From Scenedesmus sp. PABB004 (taxonomy: Eukaryota), in assembly GCA_014905635.1 (NCBI GenBank), contig JABVCE010000004.1:310001-374000 (forward strand): a DNA stretch of 64,000 nt, written 5' to 3'. The notes beneath the pieces were generated by a model that was given only the letters and a program-made list of their open reading frames with translations, was not told the origin of the DNA and did no database searches. Positions within the stretch are counted from its first letter, which is position 1, and each line of letters opens with the position of its first letter. Positions 12,801 through 57,674 of the stretch are shown in pieces. Both the position numbers and the translations under genes were made by a program.

Positions 12801-14788
12801 GGCGCGGCCGCGGGGCCGACGCAGCTAGCGGCAGCAAGCGCGGCGCGGGGCGCGAGCACCTGCACCACCGCGGCGAGCGCCGCCTCGAGCACCCACGCCG
12901 CCGGCAGCGCGTTGACGACCAGGGGGCCGTCGCCCCACGCCGCCAGGCCGGGCAGCATACCAGCCATGCCCAGCACCACCACCGGCGCGGCGAGCGCGCC
13001 GCCAACGACCAGCCGGCGCCGCCAGACCGCCGCCTCGCGCTCCATCGCGCCGCCGGGGCCGCCTGCAGCGCGCCGGCGAGCACCGGCGAGCGCCGGCGCC
13101 CGCCGCAGCGGTGAGCGCGCCGCGCCGCCGGGTTCGCGGCAGGCGCCCCCGCCGGCGCGCCGCGCGCCGCTCACCCGGCTCGCCGCCGGCAGGCGCGAGC
13201 GCCGCGTCAAAGCCGGCGTCCGCGATGGCGTCGAGGATGTCGCGCGGCCCCGTCGGGCCGGCAGGGTCGTAGCTCACGTCCGCCTGCTGAGTGAGCAGGC
13301 TCACAGACACCGACAGCACGCCGGGCAGCCGCCGCACCGCCGCCTCCACGCTCGCGACGCAGCTGGCGCAGCTCATGCCGCCGAGGCTGAGCGTCAGCGC
13401 CGCCGCCGTCGCCGCCTTGGCGCCGCCGCCTTGGCCGCCGCCTGGCAGGGCCGCGTCGACGCGCAGCAGGCGCGCCGGGTACCCCAGGTCGCCCGCGGCC
13501 TCGGCGACCGCCTCGGCGCTCGTCAGCGCCGGGTCGAAGGTCACGGCGAGGCTGCCGGTCAGCAGCGACGCGCTCGCGGCCGTGACGCCGCGCTGGCGCG
13601 CGAGCCCGCCCTCGAGCGCGGCGACGCAGCTGCCGCAGCTCATTCCGCTGACCTCGTACGTCGCTGTGGCGGCGGACGCCGCCTGCTTGGCCGCCGCCAC
13701 GGTGAGCGCCACGTGCGGCTGCGCCCCCGCCTGCGGCAGGCCTGGCAGCCCGAGCTGCCGCACGTCCGGCAGCAGCTGCTTGACCGGCGACGGCCTGCCC
13801 GGCGAGGGCAGGCCCCCCCTGCTGGGCACGCGCGCGAGCGCCGGCGCGTTGGCCAGCAGCGCGCCCAGCAGCGCCGCTGGGCTGCCGCCCGCTGCGGCGA
13901 GCTCGTCGTACAACGTCGCGCCGGGGCTGGCGGGGCCGCCGGGGCTGCCGACAAAGAGCTGCGGCCCCGGCTGGAAGGTGAAGCCCCGGGGCTCCAGCAC
14001 AGCCGCCACGCGCGGCTGCGCCGCCGCGGCCGCGGGGCGGGGCAGCAGCACCTCCAGGCCCGCCGTCACCCAGTCGAGCCGCACACCTGCGGGGCAGCGG
14101 TGCGCAGGGCTCGGCGCGCGCGGGGCAGATGGGGCAGACGGCAGGGCAGCCGCGCGCCCGCGGGGCTGGCGCCGCCACACCGCGCGCTCACCGATCACGC
14201 CCAGTGCCGCCTCCGGCGCGTGCAGGAGCGCCGCCGCCGCCGCGTGCGCGCCCGCCTCCATCGCCGCGCGGCTGGCGGCGCTGAAGCACAGCGCCGCGGC
14301 GGGCTGCGACAGCTGCTGCACGAGCGCGCCGGCCTGCGCCAGCGCCTCCGCGTCGTTGCAGGTGCAGCCGGCGCAGGTGCAGACACAGAGCGAGAGGACA
14401 GGCGTCGCGGCGCCGCGGACGAGGAGGTGGGAGCAGGTGCAGCCCGCGGCGGGGTCGCCCCGACAGCCGGAGCAGGGACAGGCCGCAGGTTGGTCAGCGG
14501 CGCCGCCGGCGCAGCAGCCGCCGCCGGCAGAGGCGCCGTCGCGCGGCAGCAGCGGCTCGTGCAGCTCCTCGCTGCCGTGTGCCGCTTCCCGCCTCCTGTG
14601 GCAGCGGGAGCGGCGGGCGGCGATCCGCGCCGTGCCGCTGGCGGCAGCGGCGGCAGCAGCGGCGCGTGCCGCGCTCCCGCCCGCGCCGCGCACCCGCCGC
14701 CGAAGCCCAGGCCCTGTTTGGCGCGCTGTGCGCCCGAGCCCTTGGCGCGGAGCTCGTCGTAGAGCGCGGCGGCCTTGGCCTCCTCCAT
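9845..14788 (-). CDS. Cu(+)-transporting P1B-1 ATPase (HMA5/RAN1/CTP-like), multi-exon
   Basis: Two HMA motifs (GMSCGSC, GMSCASC), VDESMLTGE, ACPCALGLATPT, DKTGTLT, SEHPL, MVGDGINDSPAL, YN and MAASS in the last TM helices. First exon 14788-14694 splices in frame to 14595. Confidence 0.93.
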
Positions 14789-15215
14789 GGCGGCGGCTCG
14801 ACCGCCGCTCGCGATGGCCGGCGCCGCTGCTGCCGCGGCGCCGCCTACGGCTGCCCGGGCATGGCGCCCGGCGCCTCGCCGCGAGCCCGCCTCACTGACT
14901 AATCAACCGCACGGGCGCGCGGCGACCGGGCGGGAGGGGCGCCGCACTTGCGCTGGAGGCGGCGGCGGGCGCGCGTGTGTGTACGGGACGTGGGCACAGC
15001 GTGGCGGCGGCTGTGTGGTGCGCTGGCGGAGCGCCCTGCCGTGTCCGGGCGCAGCGCGCCCCGGCGGCGTGGCTGGGCGCCACGCGCCGCAGGCCCTGGC
15101 ACACGCGGCGCGGCGCGGGGCGCGGGGCGTGCGGCGGCGCACGTGCGCAGCGCGCGCCGCGCAGGGCAGGAGCGCTGGAGCGTGAGCCCTCATCACACAG
15201 TCTGTGCGCCCCTCG
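14620..15215 (-). repeat. Copy A of a roughly 600-bp inverted duplication (promoter + exon 1 + intron donor); partner at about 33735-34345
   Basis: The reverse complement aligns with 33735-34345. Exon 1 is 93/95 nt identical and the flanks carry indels. Ends are approximate. Confidence 0.95.
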
Positions 15216-27097: not shown

Positions 27098-30886
<3,789 letters not shown>

Positions 30887-31173
30887 CTTGCGGACCCGGG
30901 GTGGCACCGCGGGGCGCGCCTGGTCACGGGAAGAGGCCGAGCGGGGCGGAGGGGCGCCGGCAAGCGGAGCAGCAGCAGCACGGCCTTGAACCCCTCAGAC
31001 CCAGCGCAGCGCAGGAGCCGATTCCGGGCCCCCCGCTCCGGCAGCAGCGCTGCACAGCTCCTGCACGACTCTCCAGCACCCAGCACGGCGCGGCGTAGTC
31101 GGCACGTCCCGCGCGCGGCGCGCCCAGCCCGTTGGCTCTCTCGCCGGGCTCTCGCAGCGGCCGCTCGGGCGCC

Positions 31174-31834
31174 ATGGCGCTGGCGCGGCGAGGGACCCGG
31201 CGCCTCTCCGCGCCCGCGGCCCCGCACCGCCCGTGCGCGCCGCGACGACGGAGCACGCGCGCCCCGGACGCGCGGGAGCGCGCCGCCGAGCTGGCTGGCG
31301 GCGCCTGGGCCGACGCGGCGCCGGCGGAGCAGCAGCGCCCGTCGCCGCCGCCGCGCGCGGGCGCCGAGCACCGCGGGCTGCTGCTGGAGGAGCGCCCGGT
31401 GTCAGGTGCGCGCGGCCGCGGCGGCGGGCGGCGCGTCGCCGCGCAACCGCCGGCGCGGCGCGGCGCGCGAGCAGCGCTGACGCGCCGCGACACCGCCGCG
31501 CGGCGCCGCACGCGCAGTCGCGGAGCTGGTCGACCACATCTGCGCCGACGGCCTCGCCGCCATCGCGGCGACGTGGGCGGCGCAGGGCCCGGCCGCGACG
31601 GCCGCGCAGCTGGGAGCGCGAGGCCGCCCCATAAAGTGGGCGTGCTCCCCGGCCTCGCTACCGCCGTGGGAGCGCCGGCCGGTGGTCTCAACACCGGCGG
31701 CTGGGGGGATGGGGGCTGCCGGGGCGCCCCGGGGGGCGCCCCGGCGCCGCGGGCGCGCGGCGCGCGTGCGCGGCGCTGCCACCGCCGCGCGCGCGCCGCC
31801 GCCGCCGCCAACACCGACCATGGGCATCCTCTGA
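31174..31834 (+). CDS. Short spliced ORF of unknown function, or a 5' gene fragment, divergent from RPS3
   Basis: GCCATGG start. Intron 31406-31517 has G|GTGCG, a CTGAC branch point and GCAG|, joining LLLEERPVS to VAELVDHICADGLAAIAATW in frame. The 3' part looks non-coding and stops inside the hairpin region. Confidence 0.35.
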
Positions 31835-32035
31835 TCGCCGGCCGCCTGAAACAGGCCACAGCGGCGTGAGGCATGACGGTTTGGGACCGGCCCGTCGGTC
31901 GGTGCCCCCGCGAAGAGGGGGTCCCCCCCACCCGGAACGGGTGACAAGGCGAGAAACGCACGCGCACACGCCTGACCTAACCTGGCAACACAACACAACA
32001 GCAAGAGGCCTTTTAACGTCCTGCCCAGGACGGAG
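31810..32035 (-). ncRNA. Candidate Fanzor omegaRNA scaffold (hairpin-dense non-coding segment)
   Basis: Lies just downstream of the Fanzor stop. Stems at 32017-32032, 31929-31943, 31905-31921, 31885-31900 and 31844-31856, plus an 8-bp long-range pairing 31812-31819/31897-31904. Strand and function are inferred. Confidence 0.5.
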
Positions 32036-32059
32036 AGCGCAGCGCACCGCACACGCCGC

Positions 32060-33414
32060 TCACGCCGGGGGGTCCACCGCGGCGGCGGCCGCCTGCCGGA
32101 ACGCGCCGGCGAGGCGCGCGCCGCCCGCCGTGCCGCGGCTGCCGCGCAGCAACTCGTGCAGCGTGAGCGCGCAGATGTTGCGCGCCGCGTTGTCGTCGCG
32201 CGGCGCGACGACCGTGCACCCGGGGCACTGCACCAGACCATAGATGCCCCGCAGCTTCTCCACGCGCGCCCCGCAGACAGAGCAGGTGACGCTCGTGCGG
32301 TGCTCGTCCATGAGCACCGCGGCGACGCGCCGGCGCGCGTAGTAGGTGCGCAGCAGCGCCAGCAGCGCCTGCCGCGGCGGCCCCGGCCCCGAGATGCAGC
32401 CCCCCATGCCCAGGCTGGCGTCCCCGATGCCCAGCACCACCGCGGGCAGGTCGGCGGGCAGGCGCGCGTGCTGCCGGACGCGCCCGCGCACAAAGACCCG
32501 GCCGTATGCAGTCAACTGAATCGCCGCATGCAGCGCGCGCTGCTTCAGCCCGTGCTTCCGCAGCCGCCACGCACACTCTGCACGGCACGCAAGCAAGCTA
32601 TATGCGAATGCATTGTTGAGCACATGATGCACCCGGCCGTTGCGCCACGCCCCGGCGGCGGCGACGCTCGTGCCCGAGTATGCAGGCACGCGGTTCAGGC
32701 AGGCATGCACGCAGTCGCCGCCGCCGGGCGGGCGGCGGTCGTACCGCCCCGGCCGCCCCGGCCGCCCCTGCTGCCACGGCCGGTGCCGCTCGATCCCGCG
32801 CGCGTCGCGGTGTGCGGCGGTCTTTATTCTAATGATGCGCTCCGCCTCGTAGCGGCGGCCGTGGTCGCCGCGGTGGCGCGGCGCGTTGGGGCAGCGCCGC
32901 TGCGCGATGCGGCGGTGCGCGACGCGCGTGCAGCCCGGGCCCTGCCGCCAAGTCGCGGCACAAACCATGCGGGCCCGGCCCGGGTCGACTCCGACGACGC
33001 GCACGCCCGCGTGCACGGCCGCGGCCGCGCCGCGCAGCGCGTGCCCCGGCGGCAGGCCCTCCACGCCGCGCAGCTCGCACGGGTCGAGCGGCAGCGCGTC
33101 GAGCGCCGCCTCGTCGGCCACGCCGTGCCCAGCTGCGGCGTCGCGGCCAGCTGCTCCTCTCCCAGGCGGTAGCAGGCGAGCTGGCGCAGCGCGCCGCGCA
33201 CGCCCGCGAGCGCGCCCGGCGCGCCCGGCGGCGCGCTCAGCGCCGCGAGCAGGCGCGCGAGCTCCGCGCCGTCGGCGCTCTGCGCCGGCAGGAGCACGAC
33301 GCCCGCGCAGTCGGCTATGCGCGCCTGGCGCTGCGCCGTCCGCCTGCGCGGCTGCTGCTGCTGCTGCTGCTGCTCCTGCGTCAGGGGGGCGAAGAAGGCC
33401 GTTATCTTCGCCAT
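32060..33414 (-). mobile_element. Fanzor (eukaryotic TnpB-like) RNA-guided nuclease gene; RuvC/Zn-finger half intact, N-terminus atypical and apparently frameshifted at 33121
   Basis: RuvC-I VVGVDPG (D at 32984-32986), VLGIGDA...GPGPP, RuvC-II VLMDEHRTSVTCSVC (E at 32303-32305), CPGC, RuvC-III RDDNAARNI (D at 32195-32197). Intronless and locally more AT-rich than host exons. Confidence 0.88.
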
Positions 33415-33734
33415 CGCGCCGCCGCCGCGACGCAGCTGCGCGCGCAGCGGCTGCAGCGCTTGAACGGCGAGCGGCCGGGTGCGGCGTGCGCGGCGCGTGC
33501 GGCGGTGCAGACAGCTGCCCGGGGCGCTCTGGCCAGCCCGGGGAGCCCGGGGGAGGAATGGACAGCGACGACGGCGCGGCTTGAGCCCCGCCGACGCCGT
33601 CGTCGTCGCAACCGCCCGCCGCCACCGCCGCCGCCGGCGCCATTGCCCCGCGCACCGCCACGCGCGCGTCACGCTCGTCGTCGCCGGGGCAGCAGCTCCC
33701 GACGCCCGACGCACCGCGCGAGAGGGCGCCCCTG

Positions 33735-34345
33735 GCGCGCGCAGGCTGTGTGATGACTGGCTGGCTCACGCTCCAGCGCTCCTGCCCTGCGCGGCGCGCG
33801 CTGCGCACGCGCGCCGCCGCACGCCCCGCGCCCCGCGCCGCGCCGCGTGTGCCAGGGCCTGCGGCGCCCTGCGCCCCGCCACGCCGCCGTGGCGCGCTGC
33901 GCCTGGACCGGGCAGGGCGCTCCATCAGAGCACCACACAGCCGCTACCAACGGTGTGCCCACGTCCCGTACGCACACGCGCCCCGCTGCCGCCGCCTCCT
34001 GCGCACGTGCGGCGCCCCCTCCCCGCCGCCCGCTGCCCGGTCGCCGCGCGCCCGTGCGGTTGATTCAGTGAGGATGGCTCGCGGCGAGGCGCCGGGCGCC
34101 ATGCCCGGGCAGCCGTAGGCGGCGCCGCGGCAGCAGCGGCGCCGGCGCCATCGCGAGCGGCGGTCGAGCCGGCGCCATGGAGGAGGCCAAGGCCGCCGCG
34201 CTCTACGACGAGCTCCGCGCCAAGGGCGCGGGCGCACAGCGCGCCAAGCAGGGCCTGGGCTTCGGCGGCGGGTGCGGGGCGCGGGCGGCGCCGCGCTGCT
34301 GCCGCCGCCGCTGCCGCCAGCGGCGGCGGCGCGGACCGCGCGCGG
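33735..34345 (+). repeat. Copy B of the inverted duplication (promoter + exon 1 of the PRP40C-like gene)
   Basis: Matches the reverse complement of 14620-15215, including MEEAKAAALYDELRAKG.GAQRAKQGLGFGG and the GG|GTGCG donor. Confidence 0.95.
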
Positions 34346-37300
34346 CCCAGGCAGCGGGCGCCCACGCCTGCTTACCGGCGCACCCGCCACCGCAGGGGCC
34401 AGCAAGCGCCGCCGCCCGCGCAGGCGCCGCCGCAAGGCGGGCCACCGCCGGGCAAGTGGGGACCGCCGCCGCCGGCGTCGGCGCCGCACTTCCACGCCGG
34501 GCCGCACCCTGGACCGCCCGGCTTCGCACACCCCGGCGCGCCCGGCTTCCCGCCGCACGGCGCGCCCGGCTTCCCGCCGCCGCCCATGGGCCACTACCCG
34601 CCCGGCGGCCCTCCGCGGGGGCCGTGGGGCCTGCCACCGCCGCCCGGCTACGGCGGCACGCCCGCACCCGGCTACGGCGGCGCGCCAGCTCCCGGCTACG
34701 GCGGTGCGCCACCTCCCGGCTACGGCGGCGCGCCGCCGTCGGCGCCGTACGGGGTGCGGCGCAGCGACCGGCCGCCCGCGCGCCCCGCCGCCGCCGCCCG
34801 CGCCGACGCCGCCGCCCGCCCGCGCCGACGCCGCCGCCCGCGCCGACGCCGCCGCCCGCCCGCGCCGCCGCCGGCGCCGACGCAGGCGCCGCCGCCGTTT
34901 GCGGCGCCGCGCGGCGCGGCGCTGCCGCCGCCGGCGGCGGGGCGGCCGCTGACGGAGGAGGAGCTCGAGCAGCGCGCGCTCGAGGAGCAGGCGGCGGCGA
35001 TCGAGGCCGACTTTGCCGCCGCCGACGCGGCGGCGGCGCGCGCCGCGGCCGCCGAGGAGGCGCGCGCGCGCGTGGCCGCCTGGGCGGCGCACAAGGCCGG
35101 CGACGGGCGCACCTACTACCACAACAGCCTGACCGGGGAGTCGAGCTGGACGCGGCCGGACGGCTTTGCCGGCGACGAGGCCGGCGCGGGCGGGCCGCCC
35201 GTGCCCGTCGCGCAGGCGCAGGTCGGCGACACGCGCTGGTTTGAGGTCAAGTGCGCCGACGGGCGGCGCTACTTTTTTAACCACGCCACGCAGGAGACGG
35301 CCTGGACCGCGCCGCCCGAGGTGGTGGAGGCCAAGGCGCGCCAGGCCGACGAGGCCGCGGCGGCCGAGGCGCGCGCGCACGCCGCCGCGGCGGAGCAGCG
35401 CGCGTTTGCGGCGCGCCAGATGCAGCAGGCGTCGGTCGCGGCGGCGGCCGCCGGAGGCGGCGGCGGCGCCGGCGGCGGCGCGGCGCCGTGGGCCGCCGCG
35501 CCGGTCGGCGCGGCCGCGGACGCGGTCCGCGCGATGCACATGCAGCGCATGGCCGCTGCGCGGCAGCAGGGTGGCGACGCCGGCCACCTCGACAAGGGCG
35601 CGCGCGTGCAGGTGCCGCGCGCCGCACGCCGCGCCGCGCCGAGCGTGCGCCGCGCCGCCGGCCGCGCGCGCGCCGCTCAGCGCCGCGCCGCGCCGCGCCG
35701 CGCCACGCGCCGCCAGGCCTTCAAGCGCCTGCTGAGCGAGGGCGGCGTCAACGCGTTCAGCCTCTACGCCAAGGCCAAGAAGACCCTCGAAAAGGACCCG
35801 CGCTGGAAGCTGCTGCCCAGCGACGGCGAGCGGCGCCTCGTCTTTGACGGTGCGCCGCCGCGCGCGCGCGCGCCGCGCGCGCCGCCGCCGCCGCGCCGGG
35901 CCAGGCGGGCGGCCCACTCGCGCGCGCGCCGCGCGGCCCGCGCCGCGCAGAGTTTTGCAAGAATGTGGCCGAGGAGCAGAAGGCCCTTGCCGCGGCGGCG
36001 GAGAAGCAGGCGGTGGAGGGCTTCAAGTGAGGCGTGGGCCTGGCTGCTGCCTGGACCTGCCAGCCCGCTGTGTGTCGCGCCGCAGCGCAGCCGGCCGCCC
36101 ACGCCCGCCCGCGCCCGCGCGCGCCCGCGCCGCGCAGGGCACTGCTGGAGGAGGCGCTGCAGCTGGAGCGCCAGCTGCACGTCGCGCTGCTCGCGGACGA
36201 GCAGGCGCAGGGCGCCGACGGCGCCAACGGCGAGGCCAGCGCGGGCGAGGAGGGCGCCGCGGACGGCGCCGACGGCCCAGGTGCGCGTTCGCGATGGGCC
36301 CGCCGACTGCGGCGGGCGCGGCGGCCGCTGCTGACGCGCGCCGCGCCCGTCGGCAGGCGGCGCCGCTGTGCCGGCGCCTGACGACGTGCCCGAGGAGGCG
36401 CTGGAGCTGAGCCTGGAGCAGCTGGAAAAGTACTGGTGAGCGAGGGGCGCGGCGGCGCACGCTTGCGGGGCCTGCTGGGCACAGCGCCCAGCGCGCCCGG
36501 CGCCGCGCCGCAGGTCCAACGACGAGCGCTGGGACGCGGCCACGGCCGAGCAGCGCGCTGCCCTCTTCCAGAAACGCTTCGGCGCGGCGGCCGCCGCCGC
36601 GGCGGAGCGGCGCGCGGCGCAGCGGCGCCAGCAGGAGGCGGACTTCCGCCGCCTGCTGGTCCACCTGGGCGTGCACGCGGACAGCAGCTGGCGCGGCGGC
36701 GTGCGCGACGCGGTGCGCGCCGCGGCCGCGGCGCACCAGAAGCAGTCGGCGAGCGGCGGCGGCGACGCCGGCCGGGCGGCACCGGACGCGGCGACCGCGG
36801 CGGCCGCGGCGGCGCTGGACGAGGCCGAGCGCGAGGCGCTGTTCCGGGCTGCCGTCGCGGAGCTCGCGGCCGCGCGCGACCGCGCGGCGGCGAGCGAGCG
36901 CGCCGAGGCGGCGCGCGCGGCGGCCGCCGCAGCGCGCATGGCCGAGCAGTCGGCGGAGGCCGACGCGCGGCAGCGCCGCGCCGCGCGCAGCGACGCGGCC
37001 GCCGCGTTCCGCACGCTGCTCGGCGAGACTGTTCGGAGCGAGGTCGGCGCCGACTGGGACGCGTGGCTGCCCAAGCTGCGCAAGGACCCGCTGGTGCGCG
37101 CACGCGCGCGCCGCGTCGGCGGCCCGCGCGGCTGGCGGGCCGCCCCGCCCGTGCGGCTGGCCCGCGCCCGCGCCGCCCGCGCCCACGCCGCCCGCGCCCG
37201 CGTCGCGCCGCACGTGCTGCGCAGAAGCGGGCCAGCAATGCGCTGCTGGGCGAGGGCGACATGGCGCGGCTGTTTGACGAGCATGTCGCCGCGCTGGCCA

Positions 37301-40608: not shown

Positions 40609-41815
40609 AGCGTGGGCGGTTGGCCGCCGCGCGCGCGCGGGCGCCGCGCGCCGCGCGCCAGCGCCGCTGCCCGCGCGCCGCCGCCGCCCGCGCGCCGCCA
40701 CCGCCCGCGCGCCGCCGCCGCCCGCGCGCCGCGGCCGCCGCACCTCCTTGTACGCGCTGACGAAGCGCTCGCCGTCGAGCCAGACGTCGTAGTAGGCGCC
40801 GCTCTGGGGCGCGAGCAGGTCGGCGATGTCGTTGGCGACCTGCGTGGCGATGACGTACTCGGGGCGGTCCAGGTAGGGCGCGGCGGGGCCCATGACGTTG
40901 CGGTTGACGTCCCCGCACGCGGCGAGGGTGGAGCCCATGTTCTTGATCACGCTGCTGAACACGGTCTTGAGGTCCTGCTTCAGGACGCCGTGCAGCTGGT
41001 ACGCCTGCCGCGTCGTCAGGCGCAGCGTGCCGTTGCCGTACTGCGCGCGGCGGCGCGGGCGCGGGCGCGGGGCGGCGGGGCAGGGCGGAGTCGGCGGGGG
41101 CGGCGGGCGCCGCGCCAGAGCTGCTGCCGCCGGCAGCTGCCGCCTCGGCCGCTGCCGCGGGCGCGTCCAGGGCACGCGCGGCGTCGGCCGCCCGCGCCGC
41201 CGCTGCTGCTGCCCGCGCCGCTGCCGGCGCCGCTGCCGCTGCTCTGCCGGCGCCGCTGCTGCCGCCGCTGCCGCCGCATCTGCGGCCGCCGCCGCTGCTG
41301 CCGCGCCCCATTCCTCCCCTGGTCGGCGGCCCACCTGGTCGGCGAGGTCGTCCATGACGAGGTAGAGCTGGTTGGTGACGAGGCCCGCCGGCTGGCGCGT
41401 GCGCATCATGAACTGGTAGAACTTGCCCTGCCCGAACGCGCGCTTCTCGCGGTGGTCCTGCTGGTAGGAGCCGTGGAACTTCATGAGCTGCACCGCGTCG
41501 TCGGTGATGAAGGTCTCGTCGTTCACGAGCTCCTCCATCAGCGGGTGCCGCAGGTAGTCGCTGCGCTCCTTGATGATCTCCACCTGCGCCCCAGGAGCGC
41601 CCCCGGGTCGGCCTGCGCACGGAACGCGACGCGCCGCGCGCCCCCGGCGCCCCAGGCCGCGCCGGCGGCCGTGCCGGCCACGCATGCCGGCCGCGCACCT
41701 TGCTGCGCCGCGGCGCGCGGCTGGTGGGCGGCTTGCTCGGCACCGCGACCGCGCAAACCGACAGCCGCCGCCGGCTCGCCCCCGGGGCGCGCAGCCCCGC
41801 GCGTGTCGGCAGCAT
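38225..41815 (-). CDS. SIR: Ferredoxin-dependent sulfite reductase (plastid)
   Basis: Transit peptide, then [56 protein letters not shown] and [13 protein letters not shown] (siroheme/4Fe-4S Cys). Confidence 0.97.
39781..39880. repeat. Intronic tandem duplication (about 50 nt x2) in SIR
   Basis: GCGCGGGCAGCGGTGTGTGCGGGGCGGTGTGAGGGGCAGGG occurs at 39781 and 39831. Confidence 0.8.
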
Positions 41816-55326: not shown

Positions 55327-57674
55327 TCACAGCTCGTCGCGCGCGGGCCCCCACTCGCCGCCGGACAGCCGCGCCATGGTGAGCCCGAGCACGCCGACGC
55401 CGGCGCGAATGTCGGCCTCCGACGCAAACTCGTCGGGGCGGTGGCTGTAGCCGTGGGCGCAGGGAATGAAGATCATGCCGGTCGGGGCGATTCGCGCCAT
55501 GAACAGCGAGTCGTGGTACGCGCGGCTAACCATGCGCTTCGCGCTCAGCCCCAGCTCGGCCGCCGACGCCGCGATCGCGTCCTGCACGTCCCCGTCGCAC
55601 GCGGCGGGCGGGTCCTGGTTGATGAGCGCCGACGCGACGCGCACGCGCCGCGCGGCCGCGATGGTCGACGCGGACGCGAGGATCGCAGACACGACGCCGT
55701 CGCGGCGCGCGCCGTCGACGTCGCGCACGTCTGAGCGCGCGTGGCGGCGGGCGGTCAACGGGCGGCGTTCAACGGGCGGCGCTCGGCCGGCGGCGGTCGG
55801 CCGGCGGCGGCGGAGCAGGCCGGGCGTGCGGGCCGCGCGCGCGCGCGCGCGCGCACCGATGGCGAGCCGCGCCTCGCGCGGCACGCTGTTGACGGCGTTG
55901 GGCGAGACCTCAAACTTGCCCGTGGTCCCGACAGTGTCCTCCGCGCCCGTGGCCAGCGTGTGCGCCTCGACCGCAAGCGCCAGCTCCGCGCCCGCGAGCC
56001 CCGCGTCGTTCCTGCGACGCGCGCGCCGCGCGGCGCGCGCGGCGCGCGTCAGGCAGAGGCCGCCCCGCCCGCCCGGCCCCTGGCGCCCGCCGCCGCCCGA
56101 GGCCCCCGCCGCCCGGCCGGGCAGCGCCGCCGCCGCCGCCGCCGCCGCCGCCCCCGGCCGCACCGCAGCGGCATGAGCTGCGCGCCCGCGTGGCCGCCGT
56201 CGCCGGAGAACGTCACCTCGAGCGCCGCGGGCGCAGCGATGGCGGTGACGACGCCGATGTCGACGCCCTCCTGCGCAGGTGGTCGGGGCGGCGTTTGCTG
56301 TTTGCCCCGGTGCGCGCCGCCGCTCGCGCGCGCGCGCTCGCCGCGCGTGCGCCCGCGCGTGCGCCCGCGCCCGCGCATGCCCCCGCCCGCGCACCGCCTC
56401 GAGGGTGGGTCCCTGCTCGATGTGCAGCTCCACAAAATAGTCCACCACCCCCGGCGCCGTGCGCGCCGCGTCGAGCACCGCCTGGTGGCTGCTGCCGCCG
56501 TAGCCCGCCGCGTTGGCCGCCTGCGAACGGAGGAGGTCGGCGCCGCGCGGGCGCTGCCCGGGTGCGTGTGCCGCCCGGCCCGTGCGCGCCCGGCGTGCCG
56601 TGCCTGTAGGAAGGTGGTCCCGTTCTCGTCGCGCTTCGCGTCCAGCGTCTCGGCGCTCAGCGCGCCCGCCATCGCGCGGCTGCCGATGCAGGAGAGCTTG
56701 AAGCGCGTGGGCTCCTCGCTCGTGAACATCATGACCTCAAGGCTGCGCTTGGGCTTGAAGCCCTGCGGCCGGCGGCAGTCCGCGGCGGCGGGGCGTGAGC
56801 AGGGGCCCCGAGCGCGGGGCCGGGCAGCCCGTCCCGCCGCCGCCGTGCCGCGCGTGCTGCGGCGCACCGCGCGGCGCAGCGCGGCGAGGGCCTCCACGGC
56901 GCCGATGACGCCGAGGGTGCCGTCGTACATGCCGGCCAGCGGGATCGCGTCGCAGTGCGACCCCGTCAGCACTGATCCGAGGCTCGGGTCGGAGCCCTCC
57001 CAGCGGCCAAAGATGTTGCCCACCGCGTCCTCCCGCACGGCCAGGCCGGCGCTGGCCATCAGATCCTTCACGAAGCTGCGGCCGGGCGGCGGCGGGCAGC
57101 GGGCAGCGTGCGGCGGCGGGCGCGGGCGCGGTGCAGTCGGTCCGGCGTCGGCCGCGGCACGAGCCGTGCCCTCGGCCGCGGCACGAGGGCGCCCTCGCTG
57201 CCGGCGCGGCGCTGAGGGCGCAGCGCGGCTGCCAGGTCCAGCAGGCTGGCCTGCCACCCCCTCGGCCGCCGCAGCCGCTGGCGGCGCTGCGGTAAGCGAT
57301 TAGCCCCGTCGCCCGCTGCTGCCGCCGCGCCCCCGCCCCCCACTCACGCCCGCGCCTCCATGTCTCGCGGAGTGAAGAGTATGCGCGTCACCGCGGGGTT
57401 GGGGTCATCGCTCAGGGCAGCCAGCGCGGTCAGCTGCGCAGGGCAGCGCGGCGCGTGAGCTCGCGCGATGGGCCGCCCCCTCGCCGCGTGGGCGGGCCGC
57501 TGCGCCCGTCTGGCGGGCGCGTCACGCTTGCCGCAGCTCTCTGCCCCCCAAACTCACGTCAGCGACCACTTTGCTCGCGTCCACAGCCAGATTGGCGCTG
57601 CTGCCCGCGCTCGCCCGCGTGGCGCACGCCAGCAGGGCTAGCGCCAGCGCCAGCCGGGCGCGCCCCGAGGTCAT
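55327..57674 (-). CDS. UAH: Ureidoglycolate amidohydrolase (M20/allantoate amidohydrolase family), ER-luminal
   Basis: Signal peptide, TGSHCDAIP, FTSEEPTRF, FVELHIEQGP, GGHAG, MVSRAYHDSLFMA, GYSHRPDE, C-terminal RDEL. Confidence 0.92.

Follow-up and report, generated by a model that had tools for sequence, protein, structure and literature searches.

A frameshifted Fanzor1-type nuclease gene with an aberrant N-terminus in Scenedesmus sp. PABB004

Among the TnpB/Cas12 nucleases, Fanzors form the eukaryotic branch, and as genome editors they attract interest for their compactness. A 64,000-nucleotide stretch of the Scenedesmus sp. PABB004 assembly (contig JABVCE010000004.1, positions 310,001 to 374,000), here referred to as the window, carries on its minus strand an open reading frame (ORF) with the RuvC part of such a nuclease and, directly upstream, a second open frame that is offset by one base. 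The initial annotation of this locus saw in the upstream frame a host-like N-terminus, possibly from a chromatin or replication gene, joined to the Fanzor half across a single-base frameshift. The locus thus raises the question of whether the two frames are one gene that has lost a base or two unrelated pieces brought together, and, in either case, what the upstream piece is.

The geometry of the two frames was confirmed. An ATG at 33414–33412 opens a frame of 98 codons on the minus strand, here frame A, which reads MAKITAFF at its start and PQLGTA at its end. Its last codon, GCG (33123–33121), shares base 33121 with the GTG (33121–33119) from which the nuclease frame, here frame B, reads VADEAALDALP and continues for 353 codons to the TGA at 32062–32060. 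The offset is −1, and 98 plus 353 codons give 451. As assembled, frame A continues to a stop at 32826–32824 and would encode 196 codons with no nuclease. Downstream of the junction, frame B has no ATG ahead of D46, its RuvC-I aspartate, so no complete RuvC domain can be made from the assembled sequence. The in-frame ATG at 33643, which would lengthen the reading to 527 codons, does exist as annotated, but the GC content at the first, second and third codon positions (GC1/GC2/GC3) is inverted there (0.91/0.82/0.66), and so it does not belong to a coding sequence.

The GC content of the window is 78.8% (0.73–0.89 in local windows), and 45 ORFs of at least 50 aa, counted in six frames, overlap 30500–35500. 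At 79% GC, with stops rare and all six frames open, the openness of a 98-codon frame is worthless as evidence. Codon-position GC is more telling. In frame A, GC1/GC2/GC3 is 0.83/0.56/0.97, a GC3–GC2 difference reached by no more than 1.2% of the 294-nt windows when every phase and both strands of the 64 kb are counted, and in frame B it is 0.79/0.60/0.92, the first 45 codons of frame B giving 0.98/0.53/0.98. The 100 codons upstream of the ATG at 33414 are flat (0.79/0.81/0.83). When either frame is extended across the junction, the pattern is inverted, to 0.97/0.84/0.57 for frame B carried upstream over 33412–33122 and to 0.61/0.94/0.85 for frame A carried downstream. Base-by-base tracks confine the flip of phase to 33130–33119, with no non-periodic gap. 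Because the codon-position pattern is strong on both sides, starts at the ATG at 33414 and switches cleanly, the coding sequence is continuous across the junction, which supports reading frames A and B as one interrupted coding sequence with an ancestral ORF of about 451 codons.

A scan of the whole window for abrupt phase switches returned nine clusters, among which the one at the junction is by far the broadest (36 positions). Five of the nine were inspected; only the junction cluster is protein-like on both sides, and the other four inspected are exon-intron borders or low complexity. Antisense coding of 33121–33414 on the plus strand was considered and rejected, as it would need a GC1 of 0.56 and a GC2 of 0.83, and the plus frame has a stop at 33170–33172.

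It could be argued that frame A lies in GC-rich non-coding DNA and is open merely by chance, and that the nuclease part is a 5′-truncated dead fragment that never had a leader. All six frames are open at the locus, no homologs of frame A were found, and some introns in the window do mimic codon periodicity: at 41328 and 3000, GC-rich introns right behind exons show it in another phase, as after the donor CAG/GTGGGC that follows ...L-V-M-D-D-L-A-D-Q, so that periodicity alone can mislead in this genome. On the other hand, a GC3 of 0.97 together with a GC2 of 0.56 is sustained here over 98 non-repetitive codons, and the signal begins exactly at the ATG and runs gap-free into the nuclease frame, which makes a chance frame extremely unlikely.

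The identity of the downstream piece is clear. Frame B matches the Cas12f1-like TNB domain (PF07282) of Pfam above the cut-off (E 5.2e-10), and TnpB models of NCBIfam match its C-terminus below their cut-offs (guided_TnpB, E 2e-5). An exhaustive HMMER search detected 34 relatives at E ≤ 0.001 among 1.84 billion representative sequences, the best of which, P0004 (627 aa, E 1.1e-18), aligns query residues 40–305 with its residues 274–558. All nine relatives that were looked up are unnamed metagenome ORFs; just one database relative carries a name, a hypothetical protein from Scenedesmus sp. PABB004. A hidden Markov model (HMM) of the family, made from seven sequences, aligns with frame B without interruption, beginning shortly ahead of RuvC-I and ending at the C-terminus (E 2e-53), so the core has no detectable intron; in its alignment the homology starts near RGAAAAVHAGVRVVGVDPG, only 10–15 residues before D46 and about 130 nt downstream of the frame switch. 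Searched against PDB, a profile of 23 sequences ranked SpuFz1 (8GKH, 1e-17), mimivirus L79 (1e-15), GtFz1 (2e-13) and PpFz1 (3.5e-13) ahead of Cas12f and TnpB. The AlphaFold2 model of frame B, built on the alignment behind this profile, has a mean predicted local distance difference test score (pLDDT) of 70 and a predicted TM-score (pTM) of 0.69, with residues 1–33 below a pLDDT of 50; Foldseek placed SpuFz first (E 1.8e-7), then Cas12f, PpFz, GtFz, ApmFz2 and TnpB, with 17 matches at E ≤ 0.001.

The predicted catalytic residues can be located. D46 (32986–32984) stands in V-G-V-D-P-G, on model strand E40-46, and aligns with the D-P-G of all seven relatives. At the canonical place of the RuvC-II glutamate there is a glycine, in G-I-G-D, about 43 residues (counted by hand) before the glutamate E273 (32305–32303), which is invariant in the 23 sequences and aligns with E467 of mimivirus L79. 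Jiang et al. 2023 describe as a hallmark of Fanzors that glycine or proline takes the canonical RuvC-II position and that an alternative glutamate follows about 45 residues downstream, and they report the E467A mutant of L79 to be catalytically dead. The RuvC-III aspartate would be D309 (32197–32195), and a CxxC...CxxC zinc ribbon lies at about 32284–32216. Invariant alignment columns are E273, T276 and C299, and D272, C280, C283, R308, D309 and A312 are nearly so. Taken together, alignment and structural model predict that the 353 downstream codons hold a Fanzor1-type RuvC/TNB nuclease core with the rearranged triad D46, E273 and D309. Of the features that define Fanzor/TnpB nucleases, four were found: the RuvC-I aspartate, the rearranged RuvC-II site, RuvC-III together with the zinc ribbon, and the fold as a whole. 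An N-terminal WED/REC part was not found. A part of the core, residues 141–200 of frame B (about 32520–32700), is clearly lower in GC than the rest (0.63–0.65, GC3 0.72–0.75); it takes in a poorly aligned segment and, from about residue 182, the conserved W-R-L-R-K-H helix behind it.

What precedes the core in its relatives is different from what precedes it here. Full-length relatives (P0004, P0007, P0027, P0010 and P0030) carry 118–290 residues before RuvC-I, and the window ORF carries 143 before D46, 98 of them from frame A and 45 from frame B. The relatives share a conserved strand, F-A-H-H-x-x-T-D-G-V, 45–153 residues before RuvC-I, and we take this 'FAHHxxTDG' strand to be WED-domain-like. 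No counterpart was located: tblastn of six relatives gave no match in the window upstream of 32992, the family HMM matched nothing besides the core among 710 six-frame pieces of the window (next best E 1.5), the strand motif [ST][TA]DG is absent near the locus, with a single unrelated match in the window at 56973, and no WED or REC domain is recognisable in the window ORF. As the conserved N-terminal module is absent, the ORF, even if read through, is probably not a complete RNA-guided nuclease.

The upstream piece, or leader, begins with a PIP (PCNA-interacting protein)-like M-x-x-I-x-x-F-F, followed by a poly-Q run, the basic patch PRRRTAQRQAR and predicted helices. Its supposed resemblance to the TFIIS_N/Med26 helical motif left no signal by profile in Pfam, NCBIfam or PDB or by fold with Foldseek. 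In Pfam at E ≤ 1 the leader matched only DUF6752 (17.6 bits, below the cut-off of 27) and neither TFIIS_N nor Med26; NCBIfam gave no match, and the best hit among PDB sequences was an unrelated protein (E 0.31). A collection of 5.8 billion proteins, which includes the closest named match of the core, an annotated protein of Scenedesmus sp. PABB004, was searched over the lengths 162–2000 aa. Neither the 6027 candidates of 162–518 aa (at E ≤ 0.1) nor the 8000 of 519–2000 aa (at E ≤ 1) contained a homolog. None of the 262 pattern matches in viral contigs and the 590 in prokaryote genomes was confirmed, and the top score in the ESM Atlas (0.83) is at chance level, being reached by shuffled sequences a third of the time. 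The single-sequence AlphaFold2 model of the leader consists of four low-confidence helices (pLDDT 63), for which Foldseek found nothing at E ≤ 0.001 (best E 1.8), with no TFIIS or Med26 chain among the 50 matches listed. The 98-aa frame is thus without homologs in the searched collections, and it does not appear to be the normal N-terminus of full-length relatives either, since their N-termini are unlike it. By these searches the leader is an orphan, and nothing in it can be recognised as part of a host chromatin or replication gene.

The initial annotation had also compared ITAFF with the aromatic half of a PIP box. The PIP-box consensus is Q-x-x-[ILM]-x-x-[FY]-[FY], and PIP boxes at the N-terminus are a typical feature of replication and repair proteins. 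The leader start fits at positions 4, 7 and 8 and departs at position 1, where it has Met in place of the canonical Q; as a pattern, the comparison holds. In the 122,353 six-frame residues of the window (686 Met positions), the relaxed form [QM]xx[ILMV]xx[FY][FY] has a single match, at the leader start, and no link between Fanzor and PCNA was found in the literature searched. The basic patch is a possible nuclear-import signal by analogy, as disordered N-terminal regions with nuclear localisation signals are reported in Fanzors.

With no homolog and no family match, the description of the leader as host-like, and of the ORF as a chimera with a host chromatin or replication gene, found no support. 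A broader form of the idea is that a Fanzor copy, 5′-truncated at about 32990, came to lie behind a host gene start or an unrelated exon. That family homology begins only just before the RuvC-I aspartate, that the N-terminal module of the relatives is missing, that leader GC3 lies slightly above core GC3 (p 0.017) and that the PIP-like motif is unique in the window all agree with such a fusion. The leader, however, matched no protein in the range searched, although the collection includes the proteome with the 98% paralog of the core, belongs by profile or fold to no family, TFIIS_N/Med26 or other, and is not accompanied by further minus-strand host exons recognised behind the element, for which no dedicated test was made. 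A fusion with host sequence is in our judgement improbable. A broken insertion junction, also proposed, is unlikely, as the switch falls inside uninterrupted coding-like sequence and about 130 nt upstream of the start of family homology.

Related copies give a clearer picture of the core. In P0003, from Scenedesmus sp. PABB004, the last 115 residues of the core are matched at 113 of 115 positions, after which P0003 continues into an OB-fold protein without a counterpart in the window. By this comparison P0003 is a paralog at another locus, a fragment about 98% identical with a different downstream gene. Related contigs came from four sequencing runs (freshwater and sludge metagenomes and an RNA library); among the 17 runs listed by the run search, the highest word share was 0.34. 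The metagenome contigs match 31915–33000 at 90–100%. They show 24 listed differences, 22 of them in the ORF, of which 14 are synonymous third-position and 8 non-synonymous changes (binomial p 0.0035), and as judged from these differences the core family is under purifying constraint among related copies. Over 33000–33414, the contigs of the four runs contribute only low-complexity pieces of 24–36 nt, and no record, DNA or RNA, spans 33121. When the core protein was used to scan metagenomes, 13 loci were found, all distant (30–48% identity, C-terminal part only), with no close copy that includes the 5′ part. A tblastn search without composition correction placed the leader and the P0003 core at this locus alone, its other matches being low complexity.

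Some differences among the copies stand on their own. One contig (X5 record 15) has, relative to the window, a 6-nt insertion behind 32377 and a 15-nt deletion at 32531, both in frame; a 102-nt skip at 32097–32200 with nine other letters, a multiple of three; and a 56-nt skip at 32442–32499, which is not. A C>T change at 32290 in an X1 contig turns V into I in H-R-T-S-V-T-C, and the same V-to-I change separates the paralog P0003 from the window.

The break itself can have several causes. In the first, the assembly is at fault: the organism would have one more base within 33130–33119, the ORF would be intact at 451 codons, and the parts would read alike. A single disruption with clean coding signal on either side, a core under purifying selection among related copies and the position of the break in a G/C-only stretch of a region of approximately 80% GC all fit this. 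Frequent indel errors, on the other hand, left no sign in the 64 kb (five of nine switch clusters inspected), intact-looking frames weigh little at 79% GC, and, with the N-terminal module of the relatives absent, decay would be unsurprising. We regard an assembly indel as a serious possibility, though one that falls short of even. A real mutation in a decaying copy is to be favoured because the inspected clusters of the 64 kb revealed no second abrupt switch of phase within an exon and half of the family architecture is already gone, and we place it slightly on the probable side. Any other cause, such as splicing or ribosomal slippage, has a small chance.

Splicing could restore the frame if a GT donor in frame A were joined to an AG acceptor in frame B and the junction removed. 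GT-AG pairs that would do so exist (donors at 33300, 33297 and 33201, second exons from 33109, 33073 and 33058, introns of 92–242 nt), but each such intron would delete at least 27 codons that have full coding periodicity. Their acceptors are GAG, and the usual acceptor is CAG. For the GT donor at 33121, inspection by hand gave no frame-restoring AG, and there is no room for an intron at the junction itself. We consider splicing very unlikely.

Alternatively, a programmed −1 ribosomal frameshift may join the upstream ORF to the nuclease ORF, as the transposases of IS1 and IS3 use one. The shift here is indeed in the −1 direction, and a relaxed slip site, CTG GGC at 33132–33127, one of seven relaxed sites, lies inside the switch zone. 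Against this, frame A contains no canonical X XXY YYZ heptamer from 33414 to 33060, none of the relatives has the two-frame layout, and we know of no programmed frameshifting in TnpB/Fanzor genes or in green-algal nuclear genes. The chance of such a mechanism is next to nil.

As the most probable account, if by no means a certain one, we propose a single ancestral ORF of about 451 codons of the Fanzor1 type, with an orphan leader and a core without the N-terminal module, in which one base is missing. The 143 residues before D46, frame A together with the first 45 codons of frame B, would be an N-terminal extension that evolves fast, is specific to the lineage and is for the most part disordered or helical. 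The core would be a complete RuvC and zinc-ribbon nuclease domain, whose guide-holding N-terminal half was replaced by the leader or was never there, and the base would be missing within 33130–33119, inside the leader. What we infer here is where the leader comes from, what it does, and what kind of change the missing base represents. That the leader is the lineage's own extension is to be clearly preferred over an unrelated exon on a 5′-truncated copy because the periodicity runs unbroken into the core, no parent gene turned up in the searched collections and Fanzors offer a precedent for N-terminal disorder and nuclear localisation signals.

Several results weigh against this proposal. Adding the leader, with an X at the break, lowers the family-HMM score to 171.1, as compared with 176.6 for frame B alone, and none of 200 shuffled leaders scored below the real one; an hhalign comparison of the relatives' N-terminal columns with the leader gave a probability of 0.2%, two of the 12 shuffles printed (50 run) doing better. 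These N-terminal comparisons are to be read with the caveat that the N-terminal regions of the family are poorly conserved and that the HMM comes from only seven sequences. The N-termini of the full-length relatives are different and contain a conserved motif that none of the six frames of the window shows. GC3 is somewhat higher in the leader (139 of 143 codons) than in the core (280 of 308; Fisher p 0.017), which would fit a different origin. In addition, no second copy including the leader was found in any collection searched.

A more ambitious version can be imagined for the Scenedesmus lineage, in which a short helical leader, with a PIP-like peptide for PCNA docking in its first eight residues and a nuclear-import patch behind it, stands in place of the guide-RNA-holding half, the shortened RuvC nuclease is domesticated or tethered to replication forks under purifying selection, and the missing base is an assembly error. 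We give this version very little credence.

The 3′ side of the ORF is informative on mobility. In contigs from three runs (X1 record 1, X5 record 15 and X13 record 8) the match ends at 31915–31918 although they run on for 37–75 letters, and none of them is marked as overrunning the compared stretch, of which only 15–18 nt lay beyond the break point. This suggests that a repeated unit has its 3′ end at 31915–31918, 144 nt past the stop codon, and the common break point together with the 98% paralog with its other downstream gene suggests that the element may be multi-copy. Two contigs of the RNA library match 31918–32099 without a difference, DNA being possibly present in such libraries. The tail between the stop codon and the break point sits where a Fanzor guide-RNA scaffold would lie, but its folding is no more stable than that of shuffled sequences (z 0.05), and Rfam assigned it to no family, the one match, SNORA43, being noise (21 bits against a gathering score of 80). 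Terminal inverted repeats were not seen at the element ends among the 25 longest of 140 pairs, which are GC-rich noise, and no transposase was seen adjoining the Fanzor ORF.

The neighbouring genes look eukaryotic (Table 1). The intergenic stretch upstream of the ATG at 33414 is common to the Fanzor ORF and the divergent WW/FF gene. A segment of about 606 bp is duplicated in the window in inverted orientation at 89% identity (33734–34339 and 14620–15212); it comprises the upstream region and first coding stretch (M-E-E-A-K-A-A-A-L-Y-D-E-L-R-A-K-G...) of the plus-strand gene that leads into the WW/FF (PRP40-like) ORF, and its other copy adjoins a gene with two HMA domains. The similarity breaks off at 33734, some 320 nt before the Fanzor ATG is reached. 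On the plus strand, a short piece at about 31500–31640 reads like protein (A-V-A-E-L-V-D-H-I-C-A-D-G-L-A-A-I-A-A-T-W...) and is high in third-position GC; it may be an exon of a plus-strand gene converging on the Fanzor 3′ end.

Table 1. Positions of the Fanzor-type ORF, its parts and its neighbours in the window (UTR, untranslated region; S/W, G or C versus A or T)
Feature	Position	Strand	Basis or remark
Non-periodic sequence, presumed 5′ UTR and promoter	33415..33733	-	Flat GC1/GC2/GC3 over 33415–33714; repeat boundary at 33734
Frame A, 98-codon orphan leader	33121..33414	-	Translation, codon-position GC, no homologs
Phase-shift zone (−1), GGGCACGGCGTG	33119..33130	-	Base-by-base S/W tracks
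First 45 codons of frame B (VADEAALD...VRVVGV)	32987..33121	-	Coding-like; modelled as disordered
Predicted Fanzor1-type RuvC core with zinc ribbon (TNB), 308 codons	32063..32986	-	Pfam, family HMM, fold match
Stop codon TGA of the RuvC frame	32060..32062	-	Sequence
3′ non-coding tail, lower GC	31916..32059	-	Ends where three contigs stop matching (31915–31918)
WW-WW-FF (PRP40-like) gene	from about 34177/34586	+	Pfam-supported; divergent from the Fanzor ORF
RPS3-like KH_2 gene with introns	about 29079–30776	-	Pfam-supported; downstream of the Fanzor ORF

The locus is an ordinary finding of modest interest, an N-terminally aberrant and frameshifted Fanzor. It adds a Scenedesmus-like green-algal Fanzor core, with a predicted intact catalytic set and under constraint, whose N-terminus is unlike that of any relative. 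It also illustrates that at about 80% GC the codon-position GC still places a frameshift to about 12 nt, and that an apparent host fusion dissolves once homology is searched. If every copy had the leader, this would be a wholesale N-terminal replacement in a Fanzor; if not, the locus would be merely a truncated and broken copy. In the literature, Fanzors are described as sporadic in green algae, one of them being the most abundant repeat of Auxenochlorella, and a Chlamydomonas Fanzor, CrFNuc-1, is mentioned; our literature search found no paper on a Scenedesmus Fanzor.

Among known systems, the likeness to N-terminal PIP-box proteins is one of pattern only, M-x-x-I-x-x-F-F-x-P at leader residues 1–10, with M rather than Q at position 1 and no homology of the leader to any such protein. 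With bacterial TnpB (ISDra2, 8H1J/8BF8) and Cas12f, the window ORF shares the RuvC/TNB fold and motifs (PDB profile E about 2e-5, Foldseek 4e-4 to 2e-5); unlike them, it lacks the canonical RuvC-II glutamate and sits in a eukaryotic genome context. In comparison with mimivirus L79 (ApmFNuc or Fanzor2, 9B0L), the motif of the alternative glutamate aligns residue for residue, as do CxxC...CxxC and RD.NAA.NI, whereas the sequence match is limited to the C-terminal 53 residues and L79 is viral, complete and of demonstrated activity; a 64-residue disordered N-terminal region with a nuclear localisation signal is reported for L79.

The likeness extends to Fanzor1 of Spizellomyces punctatus (SpuFz1, 8GKH), Guillardia theta (GtFz1) and Parasitella parasitica (PpFz1), which have the RuvC core with the zinc-ribbon (TNB) insertion and, in place of the canonical RuvC-II glutamate, an alternative one downstream. 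Unlike these proteins, the window ORF has 143 residues before the RuvC-I aspartate that match nothing and is frameshifted as assembled, and its model covers about half of SpuFz (TM-score normalised to target 0.29). The metagenome ORFs P0004, P0007, P0027, P0010 and P0030 differ from the window ORF in having the F-A-H-H-x-x-T-D-G strand. From RuvC-I to the C-terminus their layout is that of frame B, at 24–34% identity (37% for P0004 over the matched stretch), and all five have in common with it W-R-L-R-K-H..., G-x-G-[DN]-A, V-D-E-x-x-T-S-x-x-C-S-x-C and D-R-D-x-N-A-A-R-N.

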